DNA of 64,000 nt. Source: Candidatus Cloacimonas sp. (lineage in GTDB: Bacteria; Cloacimonadota; Cloacimonadia; Cloacimonadales; Cloacimonadaceae). Shown here piece by piece: positions 4,879-55,776 of the stretch (positions within the stretch are counted from its first letter, which is position 1; the number at the start of each line of letters is the position of its first letter). Location of the stretch: positions 10,804 to 74,803 of the forward strand of contig JALOCJ010000007.1 in the NCBI GenBank assembly GCA_023227825.1. Reading direction: 5' to 3'. A program made the position numbers and the translations under genes. The notes under the pieces were generated by a model. That model had not been told where the DNA came from and made no database searches. It saw only the letters and a program-made list of their open reading frames with translations.

Positions 4879-4963
4879 CCTTAATAGCATTACTTACTCA
4901 TTGCTCACCCAATACGGATGCCATCCGTAATGAGTCCGTAATGCATAGGTAATGCAATTAAGG
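4879..4963. repeat. Imperfect palindrome with 11-bp periodicity, copy 1
   Basis: Terminal inverted repeat ccttaatagcattac / gtaatgcaattaagg; internal xxxxGTAATGx units every 11 bp. Confidence 0.75.
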
Positions 4964-5135
4964 AAGCCAATTTAAAGGAAAAATATTTTACCCGAAAACT
5001 GGAATACGCGGAAAAGAAAAGGCAAAAACCTAAGCTTGCAGATATATTAAGGTGAATTCTGCGCTAAAACACAAAGGCATATTACCATTCTTTAACGAAA
5101 ATATGAAGCTTTACAGTGCACTGCTAATAAAAAAC

Positions 5136-5164
5136 TTGACATTTTAGAAGAATAAATTTATAAA
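5136..5164 (+). promoter_or_regulatory. Sigma70-type promoter for the radical SAM gene
   Basis: TTGACA (5136-5141), 17-bp spacer, TATAAA (5159-5164). Confidence 0.65.
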
Positions 5165-5198
5165 CCACAAAAAAAGTTATGACTTAAGGAAATCTGCT

Positions 5199-6527
5199 AT
5201 GAAAAATGTAAAAACAATTGCACTAAATCAACTGATCAATTACATAGCCACTGATCCGCTGAATAAATTACCCAAAATAATGGAGTTGGCTAAAAAACTT
5301 GACCGCAAGGGTAATTATTTACAGTTATTTAGTGTTATTTCTGCTGCTCTTTCAGATGAAAACAGCCATTGGCACAAACTTGTGGAAAACTTATTCAATA
5401 ATGTTGATTCCAAAGTTATCCGAAAACTGGTAGAATGTTTTGCCATCAATACTACCCTGGTTGGCAAACCGATAAGAGAGAAGTATAAAGCAAAATATTC
5501 AATACAAGTGCCCTGGGCTATTCTGATGGACCCGACAAGTGCCTGTAATCTTTCCTGCACAGGTTGTTGGGCTGCTCAATATGGAAAAGAGCAAAATTTA
5601 CCTTATGCAGTTTTGGATTCTATCTGCCAGCAAGGTAAAAAAATGGGCATCTATTGGTATCTCTTCTCCGGAGGCGAACCCTTAATCCGCAAAAAGGACA
5701 TAATTAAACTCTGCGAAGAACATCAGGATTGTTTTTTCCTGGCTTTTACTAATGGCACACTTGTAGATGAAAAATTCTGTGAGGAGGTTCTCCGCACAGG
5801 AAATTTAACACTTTGTTTTTCTATTGAAGGAATTGAAGAGGCAACCGATATGCGCAGAGGAAAAGGAAGTTATCAAAAAGTTATAGAAGCAATGGAGCTG
5901 ATGAAAAAATACCGTTTATTTTTTGGTTATTCCACTTGCTATCATCGCTATAATACCGAAAGCGTTGCTTCCGATGAATTTGTGGACGAGATGCTTGCTC
6001 GGGGCTGTTTCTATGCCTGGAATTTTACCTATATTCCCATTGGTAAAAATGCTCAAACGGATTTGATTGCTACTCCTGAACAACGCGCTTATATGTATAA
6101 AAGAGTTAATGAAATTAGAACTCATAAACCCATCCTGGCTCTGGATTTCTGGAATGACGGAGAACTTGCCGGAGGTTGCATTGCCGGTGGACGCAGCTAT
6201 TTTCATATCAATGCCGCCGGGGATGTTGAACCCTGTGCTTTTGTTCATTATTCCAATGTAAATATTAAAGATGTTTCCCTTTTGGAAGCATTACAATCTC
6301 CAATCTTTAAAGCATACCAAAAAAGACAACCCTTTAACCAAAATCAATTACAACCCTGCCCACTGATGGATAATCCCGAAAGAATTAGAGAAATTATAGC
6401 TGAATCTAATGCCCGGTCAACAGATATAATATCCCCTGAAAAAATTGAAGAACTGTGCGCTAAAACAAAACCGGCTGCTGAAAAATGGGCTCCCGTGGCA
6501 AAACAACTCTGGGAAAACAGAAAATAA
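5199..6527 (+). CDS. Radical SAM/SPASM protein
   Basis: CNLSCTGC, SGGEP, FTNGT; C-terminal CIAGGRSYFHINAAGDVEPCAF and QPCP. Confidence 0.85.
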   Translation: MKNVKTIALNQLINYIATDPLNKLPKIMELAKKLDRKGNYLQLFSVISAALSDENSHWHKLVENLFNNVDSKVIRKLVECFAINTTLVGKPIREKYKAKYSIQVPWAILMDPTSACNLSCTGCWAAQYGKEQNLPYAVLDSICQQGKKMGIYWYLFSGGEPLIRKKDIIKLCEEHQDCFFLAFTNGTLVDEKFCEEVLRTGNLTLCFSIEGIEEATDMRRGKGSYQKVIEAMELMKKYRLFFGYSTCYHRYNTESVASDEFVDEMLARGCFYAWNFTYIPIGKNAQTDLIATPEQRAYMYKRVNEIRTHKPILALDFWNDGELAGGCIAGGRSYFHINAAGDVEPCAFVHYSNVNIKDVSLLEALQSPIFKAYQKRQPFNQNQLQPCPLMDNPERIREIIAESNARSTDIISPEKIEELCAKTKPAAEKWAPVAKQLWENRK

Positions 6528-6567
6528 ATTATGTAGCCACCAAAGACGCGGAACAAAGATAGGAGCA

Positions 6568-6594
6568 CGCAGATTTCGCAGATTTCGCCGATTT
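6568..6594 (+). repeat. 9-bp tandem (CGCAGATTT x3)
   Basis: cgcagattt cgcagattt cgccgattt. The same family occurs at 31017-31043, 33270-33296 and, reversed, at 43208-43229. Confidence 0.75.
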
Positions 6595-6608
6595 GATTTT
6601 AGAAACGA

Positions 6609-6723
6609 GGATTTTAAGGATTTGATAGGTCTGGGAGGAACAGGATTTTAAGGATTTAATAGGTCTGGGAGGAACAGGATTATAGGGATTTAATAGGTCT
6701 GGGATGAAAAGGATTATAAGGAT
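6609..6723 (+). repeat. 34-bp tandem repeat, GGA-rich (3 copies plus a partial)
   Basis: ggattttaaggatttgataggtctgggaggaaca at 6609, 6643 and 6677, with few mismatches. Confidence 0.85.
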
Positions 6724-6840
6724 GTAAGGGATTTTAGATGATAATTATTATAAATTGGCTGCTATGAACTATCTTGCAATTATATTTTAGTTGCTGGATA
6801 GCCCTCATCACTATTATTTTGTCGCCTTACTTGTAGTTAA

Positions 6841-7005
6841 AACTTTCTAAACCTTCTCAACTTTCTAAACCTTCTCAACCCTCAAGACCTCTCGACCCCT
6901 TGACCTCTCGACCTCTTGACCTCTCCACCTCTTGACCTCTCGACCTCTCGACCTCCTGACCTCTCGACCTCTCGACCTCCTGACCTCTCGACCTCTCGAC
7001 CTCTT
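6841..7005 (+). repeat. 18-bp duplication followed by an 8-bp microsatellite (GACCTCTC, 15 units)
   Basis: aactttctaaaccttctc x2 at 6841-6876; GACCTCTC/GACCTCTT/GACCTCCT units from 6886 to 7005. Confidence 0.9.
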
Positions 7006-7217
7006 GACTTTTTTCTTGACAGATAGTTCTCTTCTAATAAAAGGGTAACAAATGTAGATACACTTCAATCCCATTTATCTTCCGGTCCTTAAATAAAGGG
7101 TAAACAAGGGAAGGGTATCAATTATTTTATGTCAAACAAGATAAGCTTACAAGTGACAGAAAAAAACACTATTTAATTTAGTGACGGAATAAAAATTACC
7201 GTTACGAAGCAGGGTAA

Positions 7218-8108
7218 ATGATAAAAGAAGTTGGACGATTAAATCTGGATGATTATAAAATCCTGGATACCGAAGTAGAAAAAATTTTCCGCAATGTAGA
7301 AAAAGGTAAAGATGCACTTGCAGAAAAACAAATTACTGATTTAGGTAATACGGCAAATTACTTTGTCCGGGAAGAATTAGGCAAACGCTTAGCACAATAT
7401 TCCGGTAATGGAGAAATGGATGCTATCTGTGGACATCTTTTAGAGCATTTTATATATGGTGTAAGGGCAACCGCACTCTTTTATTTTTATTACAAACATC
7501 AGGATCATCCCGAAATCATTATTAAAACAGTGGAAAAGACCTTGGAAAGCGTTCCCTGGGAATCGGAGACAATTTGTTTTGAACTCTGGAAAAAGAACCC
7601 GGATGTAATGCAGGAATATATGCCTGCCTGGGCTGATTCAGATAACGAAAAAAAGCGTGCTATAAGTATGCATGGTATGGAAAATATTGCCTCCCGCCAT
7701 CCTCAATATGTGCTTTCCTTTGTTTCTAAGCTGTTGGATGATGAAAGTGAAGAAGTTCAGAAAAAAGTTTGTCATATCCTCACTCAAGTAGGAAGACAAA
7801 GACCTTTGCAATGCTATAACAGCATTCGGCGTTGGTTGATTGAAGGTAATGAGAAAAGAACTCGCGTGCTGTGGCAGACAATGAAAAAACTTGCCAATAT
7901 TTACTCTCAACGCAGTCGTCGGGATAAAACCAACGAATTTATGAATGTTACACAAAAAACGATTGCTGAATGGCGAAACGATTCCGATCCTAAAGTTGCC
8001 ACAATGGGAGCAAAACTTTCCTACATCATAGGTAAGAAAAAGAAGAGAGAAAATCAAAACCAGAAGGTAGCTAATTCCGAAAATAATTATTATTCCAGAC
8101 AAATATGA
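7218..8108 (+). CDS. HEAT/ARM-repeat protein, DNA alkylation repair (AlkD-like) family
   Basis: Helical repeats such as WADSDNEKKRAIS and LLDDESEEVQKKVCHILTQVGR. Confidence 0.55.
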   Translation: MIKEVGRLNLDDYKILDTEVEKIFRNVEKGKDALAEKQITDLGNTANYFVREELGKRLAQYSGNGEMDAICGHLLEHFIYGVRATALFYFYYKHQDHPEIIIKTVEKTLESVPWESETICFELWKKNPDVMQEYMPAWADSDNEKKRAISMHGMENIASRHPQYVLSFVSKLLDDESEEVQKKVCHILTQVGRQRPLQCYNSIRRWLIEGNEKRTRVLWQTMKKLANIYSQRSRRDKTNEFMNVTQKTIAEWRNDSDPKVATMGAKLSYIIGKKKKRENQNQKVANSENNYYSRQI

Positions 8109-8950: not shown

Positions 8951-8971
8951 AGACACAATAAAGGAAGAAAA

Positions 8972-11704
8972 ATGAAAAAGACCTTATGTTTGATTTTAAT
9001 AAGTTTGCCCTTGCTTGTTTCAGCAACCACACTCAATACAATAATTCAGTTTCCTCTTACTGAAGAGAGTGTATCAGCAGCAGCTTTATCTAAACAAGGT
9101 TATGGATTTTGCAGTGCTCCCGGTACTCTACAATTGCCCGTTAAACAAATCAATATCCTTCTGCCCAAAGATGCTGTTATTGATTACTGGCAAGTGCTTT
9201 TTGATGCTGCAAAAACTCTTGCTGGAGAGCCACCTGCAGTTAATTCCTCTTTTACCAATGGAGAAGAAATATTAACATCTCCTGTTAATAGAAATATTCC
9301 TTCCCGCTACAGCTATTTGGGTTTAAGGAAATGGGGTGAACTTAATTATGCCTGTTTTAATGTGATACCTGCTGTTTATAACGGTTCCAGTTGGCTGTGG
9401 AATAGTTCCTGCCAGATAAATATAAATTACACTTCTTCTGCCAAAGAAAAAGGAACAATTCCTCTAACATTTAAGGAAGCAGATTTTTTTGCTAATCCAC
9501 CTGCTCTTCAGCAGTGGTATAATGTATCCAAAGAGCGCAATAATCATCTTTTAATTATTACTACTCCGGATTTGTATGCAGCTTTGAATTGGCTTGTTCT
9601 CTATCGTGAATCTCAAGGTGTAGTTGTTTCTTTTTGTGATATAGCAATAGCTTTGGCTTCCGGAACGGGGACCGATAATGCCGAAAAGTTGCGTAACTTT
9701 CTGCAGAATACTTATGCTCAGAATCCCTTTTCCTACCTGCTTTTAGTTGGTGATTATGATCTTGTTCCCGTTGCCAATGTAATTCCCGAACCCAATGGGC
9801 TGGAAACAGTTGCTACAGATTTCTTTTACTCTGATTTAAGCAGTGATTGGGATACCGATAATGATGGCAGACGAGGTGAATATTCTACCGGTTATATGAA
9901 TGAGGATTATGGAATTGACTTTACGCCAGAGGTCTTTGTAGGACGCATCTCTACCAATATTGCTGCTGAGGTATCTGCTATTGCAAATCGTATAGTTGAT
10001 TACGAACAAACAACTGAGCCCTGGAAAGAAAAAAACTTGTTATCTGCAGCTTACTTGAATTATCAGGGAGAACCACTACTTGAATATTTACAAACCGATG
10101 GAGGCCTTTTTATGGAATTTATGCGGAATACTTGTTTAGCAGAACAGGAAAACTTTACTATGTATGAACAGGAAGGAGTTGTTCCTTCTTTTCCCAGTAA
10201 CCTACCTGTAAATTATGATAATTTACGAAACAAGCTTAATTCCGAAAGCTGGGGTTTTATCAACTGGAGTGCCCATGGTAGTTCTGCACACTCTTCTCGT
10301 AAGGTTTGGGAAAATGATTATAATCAAAATAACATACCTGAAGATAATGAAATGGACTGGAGGAGTTTAGTTGATCGTCAAAGTTTTGATAATTTGGAAA
10401 ATACAAATGGAACAGTTATTTATGCTGCATCCTGCTATAACGGATATCTGGATTACAGTAATACCTGCCTGGCAGAATATGCCTTAATTAAAAAGGCAGT
10501 AGGAGTTATTGCAGCTACCAGAACCGGCTGGTATAAAATCGGATGGCAAAATCCAGGTTGGGGCGGACTTGCCAGTTATAACTATCATTTTGTGGAAAAC
10601 TTCCGTCAGGCAAAACTGGATTTAGGTTCTGCACATTCCTGGGCAAATCTTTTGCATACACAGTTTTACCTTTTTGGTGATCCTGTTGATAACGGAGGTA
10701 TAATCTACCCCGAATTACAAAATGTTTACACTTATATGCTTTTTGGAGATCCTATGCTGGGCTGGAATCCTAATCAAATTAACCCGACGGGAGAAATTCT
10801 GGTTTGGGAACCTGTTGGAAATGAAGGACTTGCTGTTGTTAATGCCCTCCGGCAAATAAGCAATTTTAATGTGGTTTATTCTGATAAACTGATTCCGGAC
10901 TATGCTTATTTGAATAACTTTGAAGCAGTGTTTTACCTGGCTGGAAAGTCACTTGCGGAAGCAGAACTGCAGCCAACTTCCTATGAATATAGTTACTTAA
11001 ACAGCTATCTGGACGCAGGAGGTAAACTTTACTGCGAAAATTATATTGATTACTGTTACGGTGAGTTATATTCAAAAATGGGTGTTCAGATGGCAGATAA
11101 TAATCCTCTGAATGTTACATCTATTCTTTATCCTGCTAATAATATAAACTGGAATTATGTAGCGTCGGATTCATCTGTTGTATATGCTCTCCTTCCAAAT
11201 CAAATATCGGCTGCAGGAATATTTTTCTCCTCCAGTGATAATACCGATAATCCTATTATAGGCGTTTTAAATGCTACTGATAATTACTCTGTGCTTACAT
11301 CCACTTTTAGAACCTCACAAATAGAATCGGGAGAATATACCCTGAGCAATATGCTCGGAATAATTCTTTCGGAACTGGAGGTGATGGATTATAATCCTGA
11401 TAGTAATGACGATCCCGTTATGATTCCTGTAATTCAATCAGTAAGTGTGTTTCCCAATCCTGCTTCGCAATCTTCTTCTATCAGTTTTAAGCTTACTGAA
11501 GCAGCACCGATTTCTATTGCCATTTACAATATCAAAGGGCAAAAAGTGAAAAGGATAATTGATTCAGAACTTAAAAGCGGTGACTATCAATTTACCTGGG
11601 ATGGAAGAGATAATAACGGCAGGTCTTGCTCCAGCGGATTATACTACTATAGAATTGTTTCCCCGGAAAGGAATATTACCCGGAAAATGCTGCTCTTAAA
11701 GTAA
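8972..11704 (+). CDS. Gingipain-like cysteine peptidase (family C25) with propeptide and C-terminal sorting domain
   Basis: YLLLVGD, TDFFYSDL, VFVGRI, WSAHGS (catalytic His), ASCYNG (catalytic Cys), LFGDP. C-terminus FPNP...YNIKGQKVK...WDGRD...SGLYYY. Confidence 0.85.
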   Translation: MKKTLCLILISLPLLVSATTLNTIIQFPLTEESVSAAALSKQGYGFCSAPGTLQLPVKQINILLPKDAVIDYWQVLFDAAKTLAGEPPAVNSSFTNGEEILTSPVNRNIPSRYSYLGLRKWGELNYACFNVIPAVYNGSSWLWNSSCQININYTSSAKEKGTIPLTFKEADFFANPPALQQWYNVSKERNNHLLIITTPDLYAALNWLVLYRESQGVVVSFCDIAIALASGTGTDNAEKLRNFLQNTYAQNPFSYLLLVGDYDLVPVANVIPEPNGLETVATDFFYSDLSSDWDTDNDGRRGEYSTGYMNEDYGIDFTPEVFVGRISTNIAAEVSAIANRIVDYEQTTEPWKEKNLLSAAYLNYQGEPLLEYLQTDGGLFMEFMRNTCLAEQENFTMYEQEGVVPSFPSNLPVNYDNLRNKLNSESWGFINWSAHGSSAHSSRKVWENDYNQNNIPEDNEMDWRSLVDRQSFDNLENTNGTVIYAASCYNGYLDYSNTCLAEYALIKKAVGVIAATRTGWYKIGWQNPGWGGLASYNYHFVENFRQAKLDLGSAHSWANLLHTQFYLFGDPVDNGGIIYPELQNVYTYMLFGDPMLGWNPNQINPTGEILVWEPVGNEGLAVVNALRQISNFNVVYSDKLIPDYAYLNNFEAVFYLAGKSLAEAELQPTSYEYSYLNSYLDAGGKLYCENYIDYCYGELYSKMGVQMADNNPLNVTSILYPANNINWNYVASDSSVVYALLPNQISAAGIFFSSSDNTDNPIIGVLNATDNYSVLTSTFRTSQIESGEYTLSNMLGIILSELEVMDYNPDSNDDPVMIPVIQSVSVFPNPASQSSSISFKLTEAAPISIAIYNIKGQKVKRIIDSELKSGDYQFTWDGRDNNGRSCSSGLYYYRIVSPERNITRKMLLLK

Positions 11705-12004
11705 TGCGGGCAAAATGTTTAGCTGGCGAATGAGAAAGACAGCTAACCAAATGCATAAAGCCCATAATGAATTCCCTTAGAAACAACAGTAATCAACGAA
11801 TGGTTTTAAACCCGGGGAAAAAGATAGTTTAAGATAGTGTTTAACGGATATTATTTCCTGTGTTTGCAGGAAAGAAAGTGGAACTATAAATTTAACTAAA
11901 AGTAAAGTGCAGAGGGGAAAAACATATTTGGATCTTTGCAAAATGGTGAAGATACCTAAAACTTAAAATTCCGAATAAGTTATCACCTGTCTCATAGTAG
12001 AATA

Positions 12005-12090
12005 TTTAACGACCCTTTAACAATGCTTTAACAATTCCTTAGTTCCGTTAACGAATCGTTAAAGAATCTTTAAAGCATCAATAAAGGAAG
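12005..12090. repeat. Imperfect palindrome with 11-bp periodicity, copy 2
   Basis: tttaac at 12005, 12016, 12027; ttaa at 12048, 12059, 12070. Arms cctttaacaatgctttaacaattc / gaatctttaaagcatcaataaagg. Confidence 0.7.
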
Positions 12091-13299: not shown

Positions 13300-13300
13300 G

Positions 13301-14179: not shown

Positions 14180-14183
14180 AACA

Positions 14184-22091: not shown

Positions 22092-22188
22092 TCCAAACGC
22101 TGCCCGAACGCTTCCCGAACGCTTCCCGAATGACGATACGGGATACATTCGGGATGCACTTCATTAGCGTTAGGGATATAAGCAAGGA
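22092..22188. repeat. Imperfect palindrome with 11-bp periodicity, copy 3
   Basis: cccgaa at 22103, 22114, 22125; cgggat at 22139 and 22150; agggat at 22172. Confidence 0.7.
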
Positions 22189-22279: not shown

Positions 22280-25192
22280 ATGAGATTATTCAGAAGTCGC
22301 CTAATCTTTCTCTTGCTGTTTCTGCTCCTATTGTTGAGCACAGTGATTATTGCCCAGAAACGGTCAGATGCAGAAAGATATGTAGTAGAGGATTTCAAGG
22401 TAGAAGATATCCCTTTTGATGATGGAACGGGATTAATGCTTTCGTGGAAGCCATTGGAGCGGGACAAAAGAATTATTGAATATCGTATTTATAGGGGAGT
22501 AAGTCCTGATACCCTTTTCTTTTTAGATGCCATTCCTGTTAATGTAAAAACAGGTGTTGCTTCTGAGAGGATGTTCTATTACGATAATTCCGGTAGTGAA
22601 TTTTTTGATATTTCTTCGCCCCGTAAGTTAAAAAAGGAAAAGCAGCAGGGGGAAAATAGTCCCTTATATCAAAAAATGCCTCGTAACATTCCTTTTTTAG
22701 CTAAGATAGCGGATAAATTTTCCCTTCTTTCGGTTATTGAAAAGAACAAATACTATCACAGCAGCAAAAAGGTTACTTTGTCTAATTTCGATAAGCAAAA
22801 GGCAGAAGAAGACGAGACCTACGCGGGACTGAAAGATAATCAACAGACGGTATATTGTTTCTTAAACCCCGGGGAGAAATACTTTTATACTATAGTGGCG
22901 GTGAATGAAAGAAGACAATTTCAAAAGCCGGCTAAAATTATAGCAGGCAGCCCAAAACCCAATGCTCCCGAGCCGGCAACCGCTTTCCACAGTGTTGTTC
23001 TGCAGGATAAAAGAGAGTTACGGTTTGAATGGGAATTGCCTCTTTATAATTCAGATATAGCTCAATATCGTATTTACCAAACACCTCTTTTATCACCTAT
23101 GGAGTGGGATTCGCTTCGCTTACATCCTGAACTATTTCAGGCAAAAACAGTAGTTCTTCATCAAGGTTCGGCAGGTTACGGTTACGGAAAAAACTATTGT
23201 CAGGTTTCTATTCCTGCGGGTGATTCCCTTGCTACCTGTATTAATTCTAACTTTGCTTTGGAATTGATGGATGCAGATGGTTTCAGCAGTTTTTCCGCTT
23301 TAAGCAAACCGAGCGTGAAAAATAGTTATGATTTGCCGGAAAAACCGGTTTTAAAAATGGAAGATAAACCTAATGACAAAGGTGACCGACTAACTGTTCT
23401 TTGGGATCATCCAATATGCTTTGTAGTTAAAACCACTGCCTTAAATGATAAATTCAATAAATTCAGAGTAAATTATCAACTGAATCAAACCGAAACCCAG
23501 AAAGTGAATAATATCTATTTTGAGTTCTATAAGAAGGGTGAAGCAAAGCCCTTTGCCAATATCAATGAATTTTATCAGGATAACAGCATCATCTTAAAAG
23601 TCCCCAATAATTATGATTACAAAAAGGGATTTCGGGTAAAAATTACGATGCAGGGAGAGCCGGAAATACCTCAGGACTATTGTCTGGAACAAAATTTGGA
23701 ATATGACCCTAATATGTTGGCTATTTTACCCACTAAGGCACTATACCGTAACGGCAAAGATGTTTCCAAAATCAGCAATGTCGTTTATCGCAAAAATGTA
23801 GCTTCGCCGCAGTTAAGTATGGTTAAACGAAATACATCTTATGATAATTCTCTTGATGTTACAATTCCTTATGCTACTATGCTCCAAAAGCCGGTTAATG
23901 GATTTAGTTTTGCCCAGGGTGATTCGTTGATAACTTATATAAATGGAGAGCGGAAAGCCCGGAAGTTAGAACATAATGATATTAGAACTCCTCTGGCTCT
24001 GGTTTCTCCGAATATAGATTTGGTGTATGATAAAAATAATGAAATCCGAATTGAGACCAATATTTTTCCTGATTTAGGCAAAAAAGAAGCACAGGAGAAG
24101 GTTGAAGAGCTAAATAAGAAGCTTTTAGAACTTAAAACCAGTAAAGAGACAATAACTGATCCTGCTAAAACAGAACAAATAAAGCAGAATATTGACCAGG
24201 TACAAAAACAGCTGAATGCCTACAGCAAGAACGAACATCTAATTCAAGCTAATGAAATTACAAACCGGAAAAGCAGGATGCGTTATATTGCCAAAGTGCG
24301 GGAGGACTATTCTCGTTATAGTACTTATCAGATAGTTCGCACAAATGGCAGAGGGCTTTTTACAGAAAGTGACCTGTTAAAAGACGGCGATGATATTCTG
24401 TATATGAAACCGATTTCCAATATTTTTGATACTAATAAATATACTACTCTTGTGGCAATGATAATCTTCGGCTTAATGGTAATGATTTTTATCAATTTAG
24501 CCAGGCGTGGCAGGGACTTGTATATTCGTCCTATTGCCGGTTTGGAAGAAATTGATACTGCAATTGGCAGAGCTACGGAAATGGGACGACCTATTATGTA
24601 TATGATGGGATATGGTTCTTTAGGTGATGTAGCTACTATTGCCTCAATGGGAATCTTAAGTTTGGTAGCAAAGAAATCTGCAGAATATGATATTAAACTT
24701 ATTGTTCCCGTTTATAATTATATTGTTATGCCCGTGGTTCAGGAAATTGTGAGAGATGCACATTATTCTGTAGGTCGTCCGGATAGTTATGATAAAAACA
24801 GTGTATTCTTTTTAACCGATGTCCAGTTTGCTTATGTAGCCGGTGTGAATGGAATAATGATTCGGGAAAGAGCTGCTACTAATATCTATATGGGATATTT
24901 TGCGGCAGAGGCATTATTGATGACCGAAACAGGTAATGGTATTGGAGCTTATCAAATTGCCGGAACGGATGCTATCACGCAGATTCCCTTTTTTATTACA
25001 ACCTGTGATTATACTTTAATTGGAGAAGAGCTTTATGCTGCTTCTTCTTATTTAAACCGTGAACCAATGCAGCTGGGAACTTTGAAAGCTCAGGACTATT
25101 ATAAATTCCTGATTCTTGCCTTTGTAATAGCTGGAGCGGTTCTTGCCAGTTTTCAATTAACCGGTCTTAGCGAATTATTTCCACTTAAATAA
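22280..25192 (+). CDS. Large membrane-anchored protein: signal peptide, FN3-like domains, TM, DUF6754-like domain, TM (paralog 1)
   Basis: Repeated DxPxDxG-x-L-x-W motif. C-terminal YIRPIAGLEEI..AIGRATEMGRP...QIAGTDAITQIPFFITTCDYTLIGEELYAA, recalled as DUF6754. caggag RBS upstream. Confidence 0.75.
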   Translation: MRLFRSRLIFLLLFLLLLLSTVIIAQKRSDAERYVVEDFKVEDIPFDDGTGLMLSWKPLERDKRIIEYRIYRGVSPDTLFFLDAIPVNVKTGVASERMFYYDNSGSEFFDISSPRKLKKEKQQGENSPLYQKMPRNIPFLAKIADKFSLLSVIEKNKYYHSSKKVTLSNFDKQKAEEDETYAGLKDNQQTVYCFLNPGEKYFYTIVAVNERRQFQKPAKIIAGSPKPNAPEPATAFHSVVLQDKRELRFEWELPLYNSDIAQYRIYQTPLLSPMEWDSLRLHPELFQAKTVVLHQGSAGYGYGKNYCQVSIPAGDSLATCINSNFALELMDADGFSSFSALSKPSVKNSYDLPEKPVLKMEDKPNDKGDRLTVLWDHPICFVVKTTALNDKFNKFRVNYQLNQTETQKVNNIYFEFYKKGEAKPFANINEFYQDNSIILKVPNNYDYKKGFRVKITMQGEPEIPQDYCLEQNLEYDPNMLAILPTKALYRNGKDVSKISNVVYRKNVASPQLSMVKRNTSYDNSLDVTIPYATMLQKPVNGFSFAQGDSLITYINGERKARKLEHNDIRTPLALVSPNIDLVYDKNNEIRIETNIFPDLGKKEAQEKVEELNKKLLELKTSKETITDPAKTEQIKQNIDQVQKQLNAYSKNEHLIQANEITNRKSRMRYIAKVREDYSRYSTYQIVRTNGRGLFTESDLLKDGDDILYMKPISNIFDTNKYTTLVAMIIFGLMVMIFINLARRGRDLYIRPIAGLEEIDTAIGRATEMGRPIMYMMGYGSLGDVATIASMGILSLVAKKSAEYDIKLIVPVYNYIVMPVVQEIVRDAHYSVGRPDSYDKNSVFFLTDVQFAYVAGVNGIMIRERAATNIYMGYFAAEALLMTETGNGIGAYQIAGTDAITQIPFFITTCDYTLIGEELYAASSYLNREPMQLGTLKAQDYYKFLILAFVIAGAVLASFQLTGLSELFPLK

Positions 25193-27761: not shown

Positions 27762-30551
27762 ATGAAAAAATATCTGATTGTAATCGGAATTATCTTGTTG
27801 ATAGGGATTTCCCTTCTTTCTACAGATGAAGCAAAACCTGCCTCCTTAAAAGGTAAAATAACTGAATTTTCTGCTACTGATATGCCTTTTGACGATGGAA
27901 GCGGAATCGTGTTAAAATGGAAACCTCTGAATAAAGCGTATCGGATTATTAAGTATAATATCTATAGAGGGGTTAGTCCTGATTCGTTATTTTTTATTAG
28001 CAGTATGGAAGTTGACCCCAAATTAGGTGTTTTAGCGCCGGAATTATATTTTTACGATAAGGGTGAAGAACCGTTCATTGAATTTGAAACAGCTCCTCTG
28101 AAATTGAAAAAGGAAAAACAGCAGGATAGTAAAAGTCCTCTCTATAGAAAGTTTCCTCAACAAGCGGAATTGCTGGCATCAATGCTAAACAGATATAACA
28201 TTATAGGAGCCATAAACAATACCAAGCTTTATCATAGTTCCAAACCTGTGCCGAAAGGTGAAGATATTATGGCTGGTTTGAAATTAAACCGGTTTGAATC
28301 CATTTTCGGTTTTCCCAAAGCCGGCCAGGAATATTACTACACAATTCTGGCAGTGAACGAAACGGGACGCTATTTACCTTATGCAGATATTCAAAAAGTA
28401 ATTCCAATAGATAATCCTCCTGATCCAACTGCTATTTTTTCCAGCACCTACATCCAGGATAAGGGAGTGTTCAATTTTGAATGGTTACCACCATCTTCTT
28501 CTGCAGATATTGCAATGTGGGAGGGATGGCTGATTCCTTTATCGCAGCAACCGAAAAATGGAGAGCTACTATCTGAAAATTGGCAAAATAATTCCTTTCC
28601 GCTTTTCCAGATTCCTAATTATTCGGGTTCTGTAAATACCTGCCATAGTGTAGATACCAGGAAAGAAGGAATAACCATACCAGCAAATTTGGCTGCTTAT
28701 TACCCGGTGCTTTCTTACAGTGATTATGCCGGTCAAAGTGCAGCCGTTACAGCCAAAAATTTTCGCAGCTTAAATTCTTTTCAACAGCTTGAAATGCCCC
28801 AAATTGAAGTGAAAGACAAACCCAACGACAAAGGTGATTATTTATCAGTTTCTATAGGTAAACCTCTGATTTTTGTAAGCCAGGCACTCTATTTAAACAA
28901 GGCAAAGACAGCTTTACGGATAAACTACGAAATTTCCAATAACGAGCATTATAAGATTAAGGAATTGAGGTTTACCGTTCTTGATTCCTTAAATAAAGAA
29001 ATTGGCAAGGTCTCGGAATACTATCTGGATAAAACTATCCATTTCAAACTACCACAACAGTATAGAGCTATTCAAAATATGAAAATCCGCATTGCCGTTC
29101 ATACCAATGATAATGGTAACTTTGAGGATTACACTGAACAACATATCGTTTATGATAAAAGGAATAAAGTTTTCCGGGGAGAGAATATCTATTATCAAAA
29201 TGAACCGGTGAATAAACTTTATTATGAGGTCCTTACCCGCAATGGTTTTGATCCTGATTTTCTTTTTGGTAATCATATTAATGGCTTAACCCGGGTTTAC
29301 GATCATTCTATACCATACGAAAGTACCCTTTATGAAAATATTCTGGATTATGATGCCAAGAGTAAACATCTGCTTTTAGACCCGCAATTAACAATAGCTG
29401 TTGATTCCTTGAACGGCTATACTTTTGCAGTTCCTTTATTTCGGAAGAAATTTGAAAATCACCTGAAAGAACAAAAAGAGGAATTGGATAATTTATTGTC
29501 GGAAAAGAATAAATATCCTGCTAATGCTATTCCTGATTCTTTACTGGCAGCAATTCAGGAAGCAGAAGGAACTTATAACTTTATTACCAGTCATCCTTCC
29601 TATCTGCAAGCCCAAAAAACAAAAACGAACAAGGACTGGCTAAAGACCTTAATAGCTACGCATAATAAAAATAATCGCAGTTATTCTTACCGCCTTATTA
29701 AAACAGATGGTAAAGCCAATTTTGTTACTACTAACACCTATATTGATCTCAAAGGGAATACACAATTTTACCCCAAGAGTGAATGGTTTGATTCTACAAA
29801 ATATATAACTCTTGCTGCTTCAATTTTATTGTGTTTATTCCTTATTGTTGCCATCATTCAAAGTCGGAAAGGAACAGCTTATATCAGACCCATTGCCGGC
29901 TTGGAATCTATTGAAGAAGCAGTTGGCAGAGCTACAGAAATGGGGCGTCCGATAATGTTTGTTCCCGGTTGGGGAGCTTTAGGAGACCCTGATACTGTTG
30001 CTTCAATGTTGATTTTAGGGCAGGTAGCCAAAAAAGCCGCCGAATTTGATGTCCGCTTAATTTCTCCTCACTGTGACTATATGGTTCTACCTTTAGCCCA
30101 GGAAATTATTCATAATGCGTATAATGAAGTTGGACGCCCGGATGCTTATAATCCCAATGATATTTTCTTTATTTCTTATGACCAGTTTCCCTATTGCGCT
30201 GGAATTAATGGCATAACCGTTCGCGAAAGGGTTGCCACTATTTTCTATATGGGATATTTTAATGCGGAAGCATTGCTTTTAACAGAAACAGGAAATCAAA
30301 CAGGTGCTTTTCAAATTGCCGGAACCGATGCTATAACTCAGGTGCCGTTTTTTATCACAACCTGCTCCTACACTTTAATTGGAGAAGAATTTTATGCTGC
30401 TTCTGCCTATATTTCCCGCAATCCGGACCTGGTTAGTATGCTGAAGGCTTCAGATTATTTCAAAGCAGCGGCAATAATTGTTATGTTGATCGGCACTTTG
30501 TTGGCAACCTTGAATTTTACCGGCTTTATCAACGCCTTTCCGATAGAATAG
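27762..30551 (+). CDS. Large membrane-anchored FN3-like/DUF6754-like protein (paralog 2)
   Basis: Collinear with 22280-25192: DMPFDDGSGIVLKWKP, IYRGVSPDSLFF, DKPNDKG, YIRPIAGLESIEEAVGRATEMGRP, QIAGTDAITQVPFFITTCSYTLIGEEFYAA. Confidence 0.75.
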   Translation: MKKYLIVIGIILLIGISLLSTDEAKPASLKGKITEFSATDMPFDDGSGIVLKWKPLNKAYRIIKYNIYRGVSPDSLFFISSMEVDPKLGVLAPELYFYDKGEEPFIEFETAPLKLKKEKQQDSKSPLYRKFPQQAELLASMLNRYNIIGAINNTKLYHSSKPVPKGEDIMAGLKLNRFESIFGFPKAGQEYYYTILAVNETGRYLPYADIQKVIPIDNPPDPTAIFSSTYIQDKGVFNFEWLPPSSSADIAMWEGWLIPLSQQPKNGELLSENWQNNSFPLFQIPNYSGSVNTCHSVDTRKEGITIPANLAAYYPVLSYSDYAGQSAAVTAKNFRSLNSFQQLEMPQIEVKDKPNDKGDYLSVSIGKPLIFVSQALYLNKAKTALRINYEISNNEHYKIKELRFTVLDSLNKEIGKVSEYYLDKTIHFKLPQQYRAIQNMKIRIAVHTNDNGNFEDYTEQHIVYDKRNKVFRGENIYYQNEPVNKLYYEVLTRNGFDPDFLFGNHINGLTRVYDHSIPYESTLYENILDYDAKSKHLLLDPQLTIAVDSLNGYTFAVPLFRKKFENHLKEQKEELDNLLSEKNKYPANAIPDSLLAAIQEAEGTYNFITSHPSYLQAQKTKTNKDWLKTLIATHNKNNRSYSYRLIKTDGKANFVTTNTYIDLKGNTQFYPKSEWFDSTKYITLAASILLCLFLIVAIIQSRKGTAYIRPIAGLESIEEAVGRATEMGRPIMFVPGWGALGDPDTVASMLILGQVAKKAAEFDVRLISPHCDYMVLPLAQEIIHNAYNEVGRPDAYNPNDIFFISYDQFPYCAGINGITVRERVATIFYMGYFNAEALLLTETGNQTGAFQIAGTDAITQVPFFITTCSYTLIGEEFYAASAYISRNPDLVSMLKASDYFKAAAIIVMLIGTLLATLNFTGFINAFPIE

Positions 30552-30742
30552 GTTTGGGATGAAAAAGATTTTCGGAATTCTTGGGATTACCCTAATTTAG
30601 AGTAATACAAAATTGTCCAAATAACTAAACCGGAAGGTTAACATCCCCGTTAATCCCTTAAAAAATATGCACTTATCAATATAATATTTTCCCCTCTCCC
30701 ATTATATCCATAACTACAACAAAACAAAGATAATTACACTCT

Positions 30743-30822
30743 CTTCCTTAATTGCATTGCCTACTCAATGCCTACCCATTACGGATGGCATCCGTAATGG
30801 GTGAGCAATGCTTCCGTAGTGC
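30743..30822. repeat. Imperfect palindrome with 11-bp periodicity, copy 4 (inverted near-duplicate of copy 1)
   Basis: Central cccattacggatggcatccgtaatggg; the reverse complement aligns with 4899-4966. Confidence 0.8.
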
Positions 30823-30890
30823 AAGCAAGAAATAAATTCCAGGTAAAATATGGTTGAGAAGGTTTAGAGGGTTGAGATACCTCAAAGTCC

Positions 30891-31001
30891 TGTAAGTCAG
30901 GAGTCGTCACTGTAAGTCAGGAGTCGTCACTGTAAGTCAGGAGTCGTCACTGCCGAAATAACTTTTACACTATTCATAAATTCTTTTGGCAGTGAGGACT
31001 C
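30891..31001. repeat. 20-bp tandem x3 followed by an inverted arm
   Basis: tgtaagtcaggagtcgtcac exact at 30891, 30911 and 30931; gagtcgtcactgcc (30941) pairs with ggcagtgaggactc (30988). Confidence 0.9.
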
Positions 31002-47171: not shown

Positions 47172-47258
47172 GCTTAATTATCTGTGGTAGAGCTATGGTG
47201 GTGATACTTGGCAAAATACCAGTATAGACCACCTTATCTCCACCATAACTAATTAAGC
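47172..47258. repeat. Imperfect palindrome with ~11-bp periodicity, copy 5
   Basis: gcttaatta...tggtagagctatggtggt / accaccttatctccacca...taattaagc, between convergent genes. Confidence 0.6.
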
Positions 47259-48630: not shown

Positions 48631-48833
48631 ATTTTACTTATATCCTGCACTTATATCTGCTGTCAAGGAAAAATGATTATTCCTGCAGATTTCGCTTTGG
48701 CAGAGATGAAACAACAAAAATAATAGATGTCCTGAACCTGTCTGATAAAGATGCGATTTTCTGCTCCCAGAGAACTGGCAAGAAATGGCTTGACAAAAAT
48801 CCCTTCTAAAAATGTGAAGTATAAAATATATAG

Positions 48834-48919
48834 GGAGGATTAGTCCTAATCGGTAAGGCAGCGGTCTTGAAAACCGCCGGGTTATGCCCTTGGGGGTTCG
48901 AATCCCTCATCCTCCGCCA
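48834..48919 (+). tRNA. tRNA-Ser(TGA)
   Basis: Acceptor GGAGGAT/ATCCTCC; anticodon arm gcggt-ctTGAaa-accgc; long variable arm; GTTCGAATC; encoded CCA. Confidence 0.93.
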
Positions 48920-48943
48920 GAAAATAAAAACCAAAATATATCA

Positions 48944-49035
48944 GGAGAGGTGACCGAGTTGGCTTAAGGTGCACGCCTGCTAAGCGTGTGTGGATTAAAA
49001 GTCCACCCAGGGTTCAAATCCCTGCCTCTCCGCCA
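48944..49035 (+). tRNA. tRNA-Ser(GCT)
   Basis: GGAGAGG/CCTCTCC; cacgc-ctGCTaa-gcgtg; long variable arm; GTTCAAATC; CCA. Confidence 0.93.
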
Positions 49036-49053
49036 TTTATAAAAAAAAATTGC

Positions 49054-49128
49054 TGGGCAGTCGCCAAGTGGTAAGGCAGCAGGTTTTGGTCCTGCCATAC
49101 GAGGGTTCGAATCCTTCCTGCCCAGCCA
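49054..49128 (+). tRNA. tRNA-Gln(TTG)
   Basis: TGGGCAG/CTGCCCA; gcagg-ttTTGgt-cctgc; GTTCGAATC; CCA. Confidence 0.93.
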
Positions 49129-49143
49129 AAACATAAAACCTGT

Positions 49144-49217
49144 TGGGATGTCGTCTAATGGTAGGACAGCGGACTCTGGATCCGTATGTGAGGGTTCAAC
49201 TCCTTCCATCCCAGCCA
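49144..49217 (+). tRNA. tRNA-Gln(CTG)
   Basis: TGGGATG/CATCCCA; gcgga-ctCTGga-tccgt; GTTCAACTC; CCA. Confidence 0.92.
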
Positions 49218-49381
49218 GTTTTAGAAAAAAGGAAGATTCCTTTTGGAGAGTGTTCTTTTCAGTGATTAGAAGGAGCTAACTTCTATAATATTATGCCAGT
49301 TATATTTTTCTATTGACAGGTAAAAGGATTTTCAGGCATAAGGATAAATAAGAGAGAAAATGTAAAAAGCGGGAGAAAAAG

Positions 49382-50194: not shown

Positions 50195-50197
50195 AAT

Positions 50198-50677: not shown

Positions 50678-50692
50678 ACAACTGGAGATATA

Positions 50693-52099: not shown

Positions 52100-52102
52100 A
52101 TA

Positions 52103-52678: not shown

Positions 52679-52693
52679 AAAAAGGAACTTATT

Positions 52694-53428
52694 GTGCGTA
52701 ACCACATCTTTCTTTTGCTGATTGCCGTTTTTTGCCTTGTTTCCTGCAGCCCTAATAAAACGCAACTTTCCACTGAAGCAAAGTTGAAAAATGCCGATGA
52801 GCTTTTTGCCAAAAAAAAATATTCCCGTGCTGCAGTTATCTATGAAGAGATTTCTTTTGAACGCAAATCAGCTGCTACTGCTTATGCTACGATGAAAGTT
52901 GCAGATTGCTATTTTAATATGAACAAGTTTAGCGAGGCGCTTGCCAGATATGAACAGTTTATCAATTCCTTTCCGGATCACGAAAATGTTGCAAATGCCT
53001 ATTTTCAGGTAGGAGTATGTTTATTTGAAGAATCCCTGCCTCCACAGTATGATCAAACCGAGACCATAAAATGTATTGAAGCATTCCAGACCTTTATAGA
53101 TCGCTATCCTAATGATCCAAGGTATGAAAAAGCAGTGGAATATATTCATAAATGCCAGTATAAACTTTTGGAAAAGCAATACTTAAACGGTTATATCTAC
53201 TATAAAATGAAGGACTACAGCAGCGCTTTGATGTATTTTGACGAAATTGTTTCTTTAGGAAATATAGATGAATTAGACCGCAAGTCACTATATTATTCTG
53301 CAAAACTGCATCTATACCAAAAGAACTACGACAAAGCCAAAGCCAGCTATGAACGCCTGAAAAATCGCTATCCCGATTCCAAAGAGGCAAAGAGTTTAGC
53401 CAAGAAATTCACCAAGCTGGAAAAGTAA
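52694..53428 (+). CDS. bamD: Outer membrane protein assembly factor BamD (TPR lipoprotein)
   Basis: Lipobox LVSC, TPR repeats, YDQTETIKCIEAFQTFIDRYPN. Confidence 0.85.
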   Translation: MRNHIFLLLIAVFCLVSCSPNKTQLSTEAKLKNADELFAKKKYSRAAVIYEEISFERKSAATAYATMKVADCYFNMNKFSEALARYEQFINSFPDHENVANAYFQVGVCLFEESLPPQYDQTETIKCIEAFQTFIDRYPNDPRYEKAVEYIHKCQYKLLEKQYLNGYIYYKMKDYSSALMYFDEIVSLGNIDELDRKSLYYSAKLHLYQKNYDKAKASYERLKNRYPDSKEAKSLAKKFTKLEK

Positions 53429-53429
53429 A

Positions 53430-54008
53430 GTGCAGGGTAAAGTTGCAGTTTTGGGAGGTAGTTTTGATCCTGTCCATTCAGGCCATCTGCATATTGCCAA
53501 TCAAATCCTGCAACAAAAAGTAGCAGATGCTGTTCTTTTTGTTCCAAGCGGAAATCACCATTTTAAGAAGACAACGATTGTTCTCCCTTTTGAAAAGCGC
53601 TATGCTTTAGTCCAAAAAGCAATTCAAAACAATCCTTGTTTTGCCATTTCCGATACTGATAAAGAAGGCAGCGGCTATACAGCTCATTTAATGCAAAAGC
53701 TTTTTAAACTGTATCCGAATGTAGATTTCAGTTTTATTATCGGATCGGATAATCTGGAACAGCTGCATCTGTGGTATGATTATCCTTATTTGGCTAAAGA
53801 ATTGCATTTTATAATTATCCCCCGTCCTGGCTATCCCCTTCTACCGGAAGTTATTAATCAACTGAAAGCAACTGTATTAAATATTGAACTTTGCTCTGTT
53901 TCCGCTACTGAAATCAGACAACGCATAAAAAACGGTGAAAGCATAAAAGGTATGGTTCCGGAAGAACTGGAACAGGAAATAATCAGGTTCTACCAAGAAA
54001 AAACATAG
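53430..54008 (+). CDS. nadD: Nicotinate-nucleotide adenylyltransferase
   Basis: GGSFDPVHSGH, IIGSDN, VSATEIR. Confidence 0.92.
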   Translation: MQGKVAVLGGSFDPVHSGHLHIANQILQQKVADAVLFVPSGNHHFKKTTIVLPFEKRYALVQKAIQNNPCFAISDTDKEGSGYTAHLMQKLFKLYPNVDFSFIIGSDNLEQLHLWYDYPYLAKELHFIIIPRPGYPLLPEVINQLKATVLNIELCSVSATEIRQRIKNGESIKGMVPEELEQEIIRFYQEKT

Positions 54009-54273
54009 TTTTTCAGGGGAAAATACATTTATTTATGGGTATTATCCGTATCTCAGTTTTACAGAAGAAGGAAAACGGGATTTTCATTTTAGCAAATATA
54101 TTATTTCAACCCAGACCTTCACTATCCACGCGAGCTTTTATCAGAGCAAGATATACTTTCCACAAATCATAGGAAAAATAATCCGCATATTTTTCCAATA
54201 CAATTTTATCAACAGCTAAAATGCGATTTTTCCGTTCCGGAGATACGGAACCCCATTCCTTGGTTTTTTTTAC

Positions 54274-54301
54274 TTGACAACTGGATAATAGCTTATATAA
54301 A
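54274..54301 (+). promoter_or_regulatory. Sigma70-type promoter for the methyltransferase
   Basis: TTGACA (54274-54279), 16-bp spacer, TATAAA (54296-54301). Confidence 0.55.
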
Positions 54302-54369
54302 GAATTATAGATGGTTATAAATGTAAAAAAGAAGAATATAAATTTCAGAAAAGGAAATTAGAAGAATAA

Positions 54370-55512
54370 ATGATTAATTATAAGGAAATCAAGGTTGAAT
54401 TTGATTACCCGATAAGTAATTGGACTAGGGGCATCTTAAATTCTTTAGAAAAGAAATATGGTGAGAGTAGTATCCATTTTGATTACTGTAATAACCAAAT
54501 TTTGGTTTATATTAATAATCTTGATTTTGAAATGTTCAAATCAGATATAGAAAAATTATCCATTAATAATAACATCAGCGACTTAAAAAAAATATCAAAC
54601 GAGATAAGCAACATCAAGAGTTATGGAATAAAAGGGAAAAAACTTCTTTATGTAGGATATGGAAACGAAAGGAAAACAGTTAATAGAAAAGAAAAGGAAA
54701 AAAAACGAGAAATCTTCTATTATACTCGGGGGAACGACTTTTCAGAGATAAATAACTTATTGCCTGATAAATATCTGGATCAGATTATAAGGGGCGATAG
54801 CAAGATAGTTCTTTCTCAATTACCCGATAATTGTATTGATTTAATTTTTACTTCTCCACCCTATAATTTTGGTTTAAATTATGAAGAAAATGAGGATGAT
54901 CAGCATTGGGAAAAATATTTTGCAATGCTTTTTGCTATTTTTGATGAGTGTATAAGAGTTCTTAAGTATGGTGGAAGATTCATTATAAATGTTCAACCCT
55001 TATTTTCCGATTATATTCCTACTCATCATATAATAAGCAACTATTTAATGCAAAAAAAGCTAATCTGGAAAGGAGAAATATTATGGGAGAAAAATAATTA
55101 TAATTGTAAATATACAGCTTGGGGATCCTGGAAAAGCCCAAGTAATCCCTATCTGAAATATACTTGGGAATTTATAGAAATATTTTGTAAAGGCACTCTT
55201 AAAAAAATTGGGGATAATAATAAGATTGATATTAATGGAGATGAGTTTAAAAAATGGGTCTATGCAAAATGGTCTATCGCTCCTGAGAAAAGAATGAAAG
55301 AATTTAATCATCCTGCTATGTTTCCCGAAGAGCTGGCAACCAAAGTTATAAAACTCTTTAGCTATCAAGAAGATATTGTGTTGGATCCGTTTAATGGAGT
55401 AGGAACTACAACCTTAGTGGCAAAATTGAATAAAAGACATTATTTGGGAATTGATATTTCCAGCGAATATTGTTCTAAAGCTAAAGAAAGATTGTCCTCT
55501 TATTTATTTTAA
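54370..55512 (+). CDS. Site-specific N4/N6 DNA methyltransferase, beta class, with an N-terminal extension
   Basis: FTSPPY (motif IV) precedes HPAMFP and VLDPFNGVGTT (motif I). Very AT-rich: line 54481 has 12/60 G+C. Confidence 0.9.
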   Translation: MINYKEIKVEFDYPISNWTRGILNSLEKKYGESSIHFDYCNNQILVYINNLDFEMFKSDIEKLSINNNISDLKKISNEISNIKSYGIKGKKLLYVGYGNERKTVNRKEKEKKREIFYYTRGNDFSEINNLLPDKYLDQIIRGDSKIVLSQLPDNCIDLIFTSPPYNFGLNYEENEDDQHWEKYFAMLFAIFDECIRVLKYGGRFIINVQPLFSDYIPTHHIISNYLMQKKLIWKGEILWEKNNYNCKYTAWGSWKSPSNPYLKYTWEFIEIFCKGTLKKIGDNNKIDINGDEFKKWVYAKWSIAPEKRMKEFNHPAMFPEELATKVIKLFSYQEDIVLDPFNGVGTTTLVAKLNKRHYLGIDISSEYCSKAKERLSSYLF

Positions 55513-55682
55513 TGATTAGCAGAATGTTTTTGTAGGAAACCAGTATCCAACAGAATAAGCAATGGAGATAAAATAGTTGCTCTATCCCGATTCCTCAGGA
55601 AGGACAAAAGAATTTTTATTTAATAGAAAGATGTATGAAACAAGATAGTGTTCAAGGTATTTTTTGGTAATATAACCCCTTA

Positions 55683-55776
55683 TAATTAAGTAACAATTCC
55701 GTAACAACCCCGTAACGAAATTAAGGAAGTGTTACGGAAGTGTTACGGAAGTGTTACGGGGTCGTCTAATAATTAA
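55683..55776. repeat. Imperfect palindrome with 11-bp periodicity, copy 6
   Basis: gtaac at 55690, 55701, 55712; ggaagtgttac exact x3 at 55725-55757; TAATTAA at both ends. Confidence 0.8.

Follow-up and report, generated by a model that had tools for sequence, protein, structure and literature searches.

Dispersed palindromes of 11-bp units in Candidatus Cloacimonas are linked, family by family, to genes of an undescribed 148-aa protein

A 64,000-nucleotide stretch of a Candidatus Cloacimonas sp. genome (the window; C10:10804-74803) contains six intergenic palindromes whose arms repeat a short motif every 11 bp. We found that these palindromes belong to sequence families dispersed over the whole genome (G000; a draft assembly of 2.27 Mb in 23 contigs, 37% G+C), and that each multicopy family (A, B, C, D, and E) has one or two copies 70–220 bp upstream of its own paralog in a gene family encoding proteins of ~148 amino acids (aa). 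The names of homologous proteins agree with an assignment of G000 to Candidatus Cloacimonas, and its contigs correspond to those of metagenome Ga0265297. We have little doubt that this one-to-one linkage between gene and palindrome is real. The 148-aa protein is undescribed and confined to Cloacimonadota, and we found no literature describing repeats of this kind in Cloacimonas or the protein itself. To explain the linkage, we lean slightly toward a composite interpretation, a lineage-specific two-part system in which the paralogs would bind their own arrays and the orphan palindromes would be dispersed copies, resembling repetitive extragenic palindrome (REP) doublets forming hairpins (REPINs) and their REP-associated tyrosine transposases (RAYTs).

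Palindromes with 11-bp units are abundant and intergenic

The sequence-only reading of the window had reported six palindromes of 80–100 bp with 11-bp arm units, and all six were found in the places it gave (Table 1). The autocorrelation of every one of them peaked at lag 11 (0.37–0.57 vs 0.19–0.36 across lags 8–14), as that reading led one to expect. When the right arm was reverse-complemented and stacked with the left arm in 11-nt registers, the repeated units were directly visible (e.g., AACGCTTCCCG three times in element 3 and ACACTTCCGTA three times in element 6). Each element was predicted to fold into a single long hairpin (-18 to -47 kcal/mol).

We scanned the whole genome for ungapped palindromes (arm 40 nt, loop 0–15, at least 26 of 40 positions complementary) and obtained 202, of which 98 had a lag-11 identity of ≥0.5. 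A dinucleotide-preserving shuffle of G000 gave 11 palindromes, one of them with a lag-11 identity of ≥0.5. With slightly relaxed thresholds, at least 134 palindromes with 11-bp units were present in G000, each 80–100 bp long with arms of 3–4 tandem units; ungapped conservative detectors overlook some copies (e.g., the one linked to the gene of family B), and the relaxed set includes false positives. Further palindromes of this kind thus exist across the genome, and the abundance of palindromes is far above chance. The periodicity was specific among neighboring values: tracts of period 11 numbered 101, against 12, 22, and 5 for periods 10, 12, and 13, respectively, and all except six of the period-11 tracts lay inside palindromes. 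Tracts of period 9 numbered 164.

Approximately 90% of the 134 elements were intergenic, compared with 13% of G000 that is non-coding. Their distribution over convergent (31), divergent (33), and co-directional (56) regions followed the total length of each region type; therefore, no promoter or terminator bias was apparent.

Sequence families

The elements were assigned to families A to E and to singletons (Table 1). The claim that the window elements share an architecture but no sequence held between families and failed within them: elements 1 and 4 are both members of family C, and elements 2 and 6 belong to the related families A and B, respectively. The supposedly shared flanking sequences, TAATTAAG and TTAAGGAAG, proved to be no separate flanks; they belong to the family consensus palindromes and make up their outermost part. 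Each family consensus was a nearly perfect palindrome, spacers included, and the periodic internal loops of single copies are therefore attributable to decay rather than design.

The palindromes of family A were mostly located within a larger non-coding repeat of 680 bp, ~290 bp from its left end. This repeat was represented by ~10 full and 25 truncated copies with 77–85% identity (reference copy, C1:252148-252823). It has a sharp right end (...GAAAACTATAT), and the truncated copies always retained the part on the side of the palindrome. The 680-bp repeat contained no conserved open reading frame (ORF), no Rfam match, and no remnant of a 148-aa protein gene.

Each multicopy family is linked to its own gene of the 148-aa protein family

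The paralog family of ~148-aa proteins was defined by comparing all ORFs of G000 with each other using BLAST and then by a hidden Markov model (HMM), which gave 11 members in G000. A palindrome was located 30–350 bp upstream of six of the 11 paralogs, compared with 4.1% of all genes (P = 1.9e-6). The gene-linked copies of families A to E are listed in Table 1. The interval between the palindrome and the start codon contained a TATA-like box preceded by a direct repeat, TTTGTCAC-N11-TTTTGTCAC. This direct repeat occurred six times in G000, in all cases upstream of a gene of the 148-aa family (e.g., C1:168576, C1:185837, and C21:67203), and its counterpart in G+C-richer relatives was CTGTCCG-N11-CTGTCCG. 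The direct repeat could serve as a second operator or as a promoter private to this gene family. The E-linked gene was present as a duplicated unit (E1/E2) that spans from the palindrome to five bases beyond the stop codon; therefore, the palindrome and the gene travel together.

The same arrangement was observed outside G000. In four contigs of other Cloacimonadota, a palindrome of period 11 with CCCTCGTGA-type units was located 180–450 bp upstream of the gene, and the genes around the 148-aa protein gene were not conserved. More than 20 genomes yielded 51 loci whose upstream sequence was long enough; a conservative ungapped detector found an upstream palindrome at 38 of them, and the modal distance from the palindrome center to the ATG was ~150 bp. 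The motifs at these 38 loci were very diverse (e.g., CCCTCGTGA, CTGCCG, TACGGTAGCAA, and GCATTGGCTT).

Motif and protein appear to vary together. Genes encoding proteins 53–62% identical to the C-linked paralog had CATTRC-like units upstream. One of these proteins is a paralog of another species (G002), and its motif, ATCATTAC/ATCATTGC, matched an orphan family of the same genome. A 100-kb portion of G002 contained seven 11-bp-period palindromes with the motifs CGGTTG, ATCATTAC, ATACGC, and CCCTCGTGA, and the orphan motifs of this genome matched its gene-linked motifs. A 100-kb portion of a genome belonging to another family contained no 11-bp-period palindromes. Over the surveyed loci, protein identity was correlated with arm similarity (Mantel rho 0.31; 0 of 2000 permutations reached this value).

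Family C (27 copies by pattern) was present only in this species, and no ortholog of the C-linked paralog in the rest of the genus exceeded 62% identity. Both family C and its linked paralog were missing from G012, another species of the genus. Family C had no copies in 17 of the 20 other genomes searched and a single related match in each of the other three. These single C-core copies were considered as gene-linked master copies and rejected, since they were orphans that belong to related families, and no paralog lay within 1.1 kb of them. Of 18 other species of the genus, only G012 had the family A pattern, and 12 genomes representing other families of the order all lacked it.

The elements might alternatively act as RNA, namely as bidirectional terminators, mRNA-stabilizing hairpins, or small-RNA precursors. 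The very stable predicted hairpins and the location of half of the window copies between convergent genes agree with such a role, and an 11-nt period would equal one turn of the A-form helix, which has 11 bp per turn. We nevertheless regard it as most improbable. The stem is not followed by a U-tract, the ends are purine-rich (GGAAGAAA) on both strands, and no enrichment downstream of genes was observed genome-wide, all of which also distinguish the elements from intrinsic terminators. Searches of Rfam 15 gave only sub-threshold generic miRNA-hairpin matches for the five family representatives, and only tRNAs matched in the window. In addition, the promoter-like TTTGTCAC/TATA region separates the gene-linked copies from the gene, so that they are probably not transcribed with it.

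The 148-aa protein

All sampled genomes of the same taxonomic family contained the 148-aa protein family (1–26 copies each), which also occurred in some other families of the order and was absent from the remaining sample of the phylum. Among 1.84 billion representative proteins, only 313 clusters matched, nearly all of ~150 aa and standalone. No significant match to the protein was found in Pfam, NCBIfam, PHROGs, or PADLOC, and a profile search of PDB sequences remained at chance level (E > 0.7). A confident AlphaFold2 model (predicted local distance difference test score, 88.7) consisted of three N-terminal strands (residues 14–34) followed by five helices; Foldseek searches of PDB and BFVD with this model gave no neighbor (best E 1.7 and 0.3, respectively; template modeling score below 0.25). 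Fold and PDB profile searches gave no ribbon-helix-helix or winged-helix match, and no nuclease, recombinase, or other catalytic motif was recognizable in the protein.

Residues 1–60 were strongly basic (net charge ~+10, counted from the sequence), and the remainder was slightly acidic. The protein is thus predicted to comprise a basic N-terminal β-hairpin region and a conserved helical C-terminal half. The most variable stretches were residues 22–29 and 35–58, and the C-terminal block LPCISVKRAVEAGLLP was nearly invariant.

Occupancy of shared sites and turnover

G012 and G000 share ~84–87% identity in coding DNA. In 400 kb of G012, we found 28 palindromes of this type, belonging to families A, D, and E. 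Of the 12 G012 elements with syntenic flanks, 11 had the same intergenic site occupied in G000, against a background of 21% for intergenic regions ≥100 bp long (P = 2.8e-7). The occupant was of the same family at six of the 11 shared sites and of a different family at five, and four of these five were A in G012 and C in G000. Among metagenomic contigs with syntenic flanks, most of them 98–100% identical, all 20 checkable family C insertions were shared; therefore, turnover is slow on the strain scale.

Elements were also located at rearrangement breakpoints and contig ends. A 13-kb operon of the purine/allantoin type (C23:260648-273944; locus L036) was bracketed by two inverted 680-bp A elements. 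This operon encodes AllH/AllG-like oxamate carbamoyltransferase subunits, xanthine-dehydrogenase-type molybdoenzyme subunits, a CoA-transferase, and an amidase. It was missing from G012, in which a single element was present at that junction.

The filling of the same intergenic positions in two species ~85% identical, even with different families, the stability of elements within a species, and the constant distance of ~150 bp between the center of the gene-linked palindrome and the start codon would all be expected if the palindromes were fixed, non-mobile host sites, with the paralogs as transcription or nucleoid factors and the palindromes as operators, insulators, or roadblocks at operon borders. 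On the other hand, a quarter of the copies are between convergent genes and occupancy follows intergenic length; families burst in single species (family C: 27 copies here, none in 17 of 20 other genomes); arrays of 85–100 bp are far larger than ordinary operators; and the surrounding intergenic DNA is not conserved. On balance, fixed host sites seem unlikely.

Candidate mobilizing enzymes and other element types

HU-like or HUH genes had been suggested as partners of the elements, and neither linkage was borne out. G000 has only two ordinary HU genes and shows no expansion of HU-HIG proteins, and its five PF01797 (HUH) genes are each flanked by their own, other repeats (AGCCCCTAAGGGCGACAC..., TTCCGTAGGAACGACA..., or GACTCCTGACTTA) without 11-bp periodicity.

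A more conventional possibility is that the elements are miniature inverted-repeat transposable elements (MITEs), that is, fused insertion-sequence ends with phased transposase sites moved in trans by a conventional transposase. Their occurrence as high-copy, intergenic, species-specific families and as repeats at synteny breakpoints and contig ends is consistent with this, and the ends of Tn7, Mu, IS21, and IS607 carry multiple phased binding sites. However, period-11 tracts were almost all within palindromes, and the search for an autonomous element with separated arms ended in rejection, as no gene in G000 was flanked by split 11-bp arms. Neither a multicopy transposase (all-ORF self-comparison) nor a gene bracketed by two same-family elements was found in G000, although the draft assembly may hide collapsed insertion sequences. 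With neither a visible target duplication nor polymorphism among conspecific strains, an origin as ordinary MITEs appears quite improbable.

Alternatively, the palindromes could be REP/REPIN hairpins copied in single-stranded form by a resident RAYT-type (HUH, Y1) transposase, the 148-aa protein being unrelated to their spread. The five PF01797 genes of G000 are in favor of this. So is the stability of REPINs, which matches the 20 of 20 shared strain sites; REPINs are described as long, species-specific hairpins that duplicate slowly and keep their place at orthologous sites (PMC3116915, PMC8049555). However, each PF01797 gene has its own different repeats, none with an 11-bp period, and at least five palindrome families map one-to-one onto the 148-aa gene family instead. 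Furthermore, the arms lack a GTAG/CGTC tag; no such tag was present in the family consensus sequences, whose arms are tandem 11-mers. We assign a low probability to this explanation as well.

A phage-borne master copy was also considered and rejected: hits of the family A pattern in viral contigs were mostly unrelated direct 11-bp tandem iterons, and one true element was present, on a 16.8-kb contig. The viral loci L056, L060, L063, and L076 carry long direct tandem 11-bp arrays (TGTTAAAGAAT / TCTTTAACAAT) that are iteron-like, not palindromic, and unrelated to the elements.

Separate repeats accompany the RAYT-like genes of G000. Three IS200/RAYT-like genes of ~150 aa (C1:49812-50261, C4:15654-16103, and C7:196962-197414) were each bracketed by inverted tandem arrays of 88–99-bp units with the cores AGCCCCTAAGGGCGACAC...GGCGTAAGCCCCTCG or TTCCGTAGGAACGACA...CCGGATTTCAATCCGGTGAT. 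In the window, three tandem 20-bp units, TAAGTCAGGAGTCGTCACTG, adjoin element 4 (30893-30952), and related inverted copies extend to ~31145. These units represent a classical REP-type family with the core GACTCCTGACTTA..TAAGTCAGGAGTC, and the same family was found on both sides of a weakly PF01797-like 192-aa gene (C6:60432-61007). The GACTCCTGACTTA..TAAGTCAGGAGTC repeats and the 192-aa gene look like a separate REP/RAYT system.

A two-part system as the favored interpretation

The lineage-specific two-part system outlined at the start depends on recognition of each array by the linked paralog. From the gene linkage and the co-variation of motif and protein, each paralog probably binds its own array. 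The proposal that the palindromes are cooperative protein-binding arrays has thereby gained a candidate cognate protein. The paralog would bind its array cooperatively with one subunit per 11-bp unit, so that all subunits would share one helical face, and a symmetric oligomer would read the two arms in opposite directions. The copy next to the gene would be the home site or operator of the protein, and the orphans would be the home site copied into other intergenic DNA, as REPINs stand to their RAYT. The orphan copies could be selfish passengers or docking sites tolerated or used by the host. Their spread would be slow and would prefer a fixed set of intergenic positions, at which one family could replace another, and the resident RAYTs might act in trans as the copying enzyme.

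A more far-reaching variant is a self-propagating system of protein and site, in which a protein of a new fold recognizes the array and promotes its copying, directly or via host recombination, into fixed slots, overwriting the arrays of rivals. This is possible, but we consider it doubtful. If true, the paralogs (up to 26 per genome) would be competing lineages with their own recognition codes.

The sequence-only reading had also proposed an element whose core diversifies while its geometry is kept. The geometry was indeed constant across the bacterial family with a varying motif, and dispersed multicopy families were found; the mobility of the element is itself a deduction.

Several observations weigh against the two-part system. 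Concerning mobility, no direct repeat or target-site duplication was visible at the family borders; the intergenic DNA around the sites shared by G000 and G012 could not be aligned, and no empty/filled pair with alignable flanks was found; and no insertion polymorphism was seen among conspecific strains, all 20 metagenomic sites being filled. The case for mobility therefore lies only in copy number and species-specific bursts. The 680-bp repeat, apart from its palindrome, had nothing in common with the gene-linked A copy, so that the copied unit may exceed the palindrome. Concerning the partnership, five of the 11 G000 paralogs had no detectable palindrome within 330 bp, and singletons such as elements 3 and 5 had no cognate gene in G000. 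Joint inheritance of a linked gene and site could give the Mantel correlation, which is therefore no proof that specificities have co-evolved. Finally, no DNA-binding domain was recognized in the 148-aa protein by sequence or fold searches.

Most knowledge of dispersed palindromic repeats comes from proteobacteria, in which HUH transposases are associated with them. The uncultured and industrially important Cloacimonadota of anaerobic digesters follow the same logic of a repeat family plus cognate gene with a wholly undescribed protein family and a strict DNA architecture in which each unit spans one helical turn. Should the protein bind the array, the dozens of paralog/motif pairs found in nature would be a ready data set for a recognition code and a source of orthogonal DNA-binding modules; if the system also propagates itself, they would form a natural series of matched protein and DNA specificities. 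That one family takes the place of another at an unchanged intergenic position has not been described for REPs or MITEs, and this bears on how repeats persist in compact genomes. Since the repeats mark synteny breakpoints and assembly gaps, they are also relevant to the binning and assembly of these genomes.

Comparison with known systems

REPIN/RAYT is the closest described system, although two features that define it, a linked HUH gene and the REP tag, were not found here. In the published descriptions, REPIN families are each tied to a cognate single-copy gene, inherited vertically, and stable in position (PMC3116915, PMC3337134, PMC8049555), and a REP unit is given as 20–40 bp, one end of which carries a conserved GTAG or CGTC tag (PMC3733652). 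Like REPINs, the present elements are dispersed intergenic palindromes forming long hairpins, with several families per genome, each with one gene-adjacent copy; they are high-copy, extragenic, species-specific in sequence, vertically inherited, and stable at orthologous sites. Unlike in REPIN/RAYT, the linked gene encodes no HUH protein; it belongs to a 148-aa family without a known domain or fold. The repeat is located only on the upstream side of the gene, not on both sides, and its arms are tandem 11-bp units without the GTAG/CGTC tag. Moreover, the families replace one another at the same sites, and the RAYTs of G000 have different REPs of their own.

With MITEs such as Correia/NEMIS, RUP, and BrickBuilt, the elements share the character of small non-coding intergenic multicopy inverted repeats, and some MITEs contain internal tandem units. 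In contrast to MITEs, no parent insertion sequence, target duplication, or strain polymorphism was found here, and the element is a single palindrome of phased units.

Cooperative arrays are formed by the 11-bp iterons of plasmid R1 parC bound by ParR, the heptads of omega proteins, and the iterons of plasmid Rep proteins. The elements resemble such operator or centromere arrays in having direct and inverted units one helical turn apart beside the gene of a small putative binding protein, an arrangement that implies cooperative binding on the same face. Known arrays of this type occur once per replicon, whereas tens of chromosomal copies in many sequence versions are present here.

Integron attC sites are likewise imperfect palindromes (60–140 bp) recognized by architecture rather than sequence. 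However, the elements form no cassette arrays, since those of the window lie between ordinary operons at distances of 7–16 kb (no search for an integrase gene was made). They also lack the R/L box layout, have 3–4 phased units per arm, and show strong sequence conservation within families.

Features of the window

The six window elements occur singly, 7–16 kb apart, between ordinary operons. The sole relative found of element 3 was a palindrome upstream of a 148-aa protein paralog in another species of the genus (locus L142; 29 of 32 positions matched). Element 5 had the weakest 11-bp signal of the six (0.40), and elsewhere in G000 only partial matches of 23–26 nt to it were found.

Table 1 Palindromes of the window, gene-linked palindromes, and palindrome families in G000. 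Positions of elements 1–6 are those of the window; others are contig coordinates of G000.
Feature	Position	Strand	Family or type	Description
Element 1	4878..4964	.	C	Divergent intergenic region; arms 31/40 complementary; units GCATTACnTAC / CCATTGCnnAC; center ACGGATGCCATCCGT; outer ends CCTTAAT...ATTAAGG(AAG)
Element 2	12002..12088	.	A	(C)TTTAACnnnn(C) units; palindrome alone, without the 680-bp A-type context; between co-directional genes; acyltransferase gene 140 bp downstream
Element 3	22092..22175	.	Singleton in G000	CCCGAACGCTT units
Element 4	30741..30829	.	C	Reverse-complement orientation of element 1; convergent intergenic region; TCTTCCTTAAT end at left; exact core CATTACGGATGGCATCCGTAATG at C10:41580
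Element 5	47172..47258	.	Singleton	GGTGG/TGGT units; TTAATTA ends; convergent intergenic region
Element 6	55676..55776	.	B	CCGTAACAnnn / GTGTTACGGAA units; convergent intergenic region
Gene-linked palindrome	C1:168426-168508		A-type	Paralog start C1:168643; gene C1:168643-169086
Gene-linked palindrome	C1:153948-154034		B	Paralog start C1:153818, minus strand
Gene-linked palindrome	center C21:67147		C	Paralog start C21:67317; gene C21:67317-67763
Gene-linked palindrome	from C21:234079		D	Paralog start C21:233947, minus strand; gene C21:233504-233947
Gene-linked palindrome	C1:48553-48633		E	Paralog start C1:48681
Gene-linked half palindrome	C15:25981-26015		E	Paralog start C15:26068
Families A/B			TTAAC/GTAAC type	Units CTTTAACGAnT and CCGTAACAnnT; 70 copies
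Family C			CATTRC type	Units CATTRCnnACC, center ACGGATGSCATCCGT; 24 copies (27 by pattern)
Family D			CCCWTATC type	Units TTCCCWTATCn; 16 copies
Family E			TTAATC type	Units CCTTAATCAAG; 9 copies
Singletons			various units	15 clusters, some probably false positives

Other features of the window and its surroundings were as follows. Two large paralogous proteins of 970 and 929 aa with a C-terminal DUF6754 domain are encoded at 22280-25192 and 27762-30551, respectively. Near them are several proteins sorted by the type IX secretion system (Por_Secre_tail), including a C25 peptidase at 8972-11704. Four clustered tRNA genes are located at 48834-49214. Inverted TTATCCACA-type DnaA boxes were found beside a 444-aa gene at C10:3518-3604, 7 kb before the start of the window, and this is a possible oriC region.

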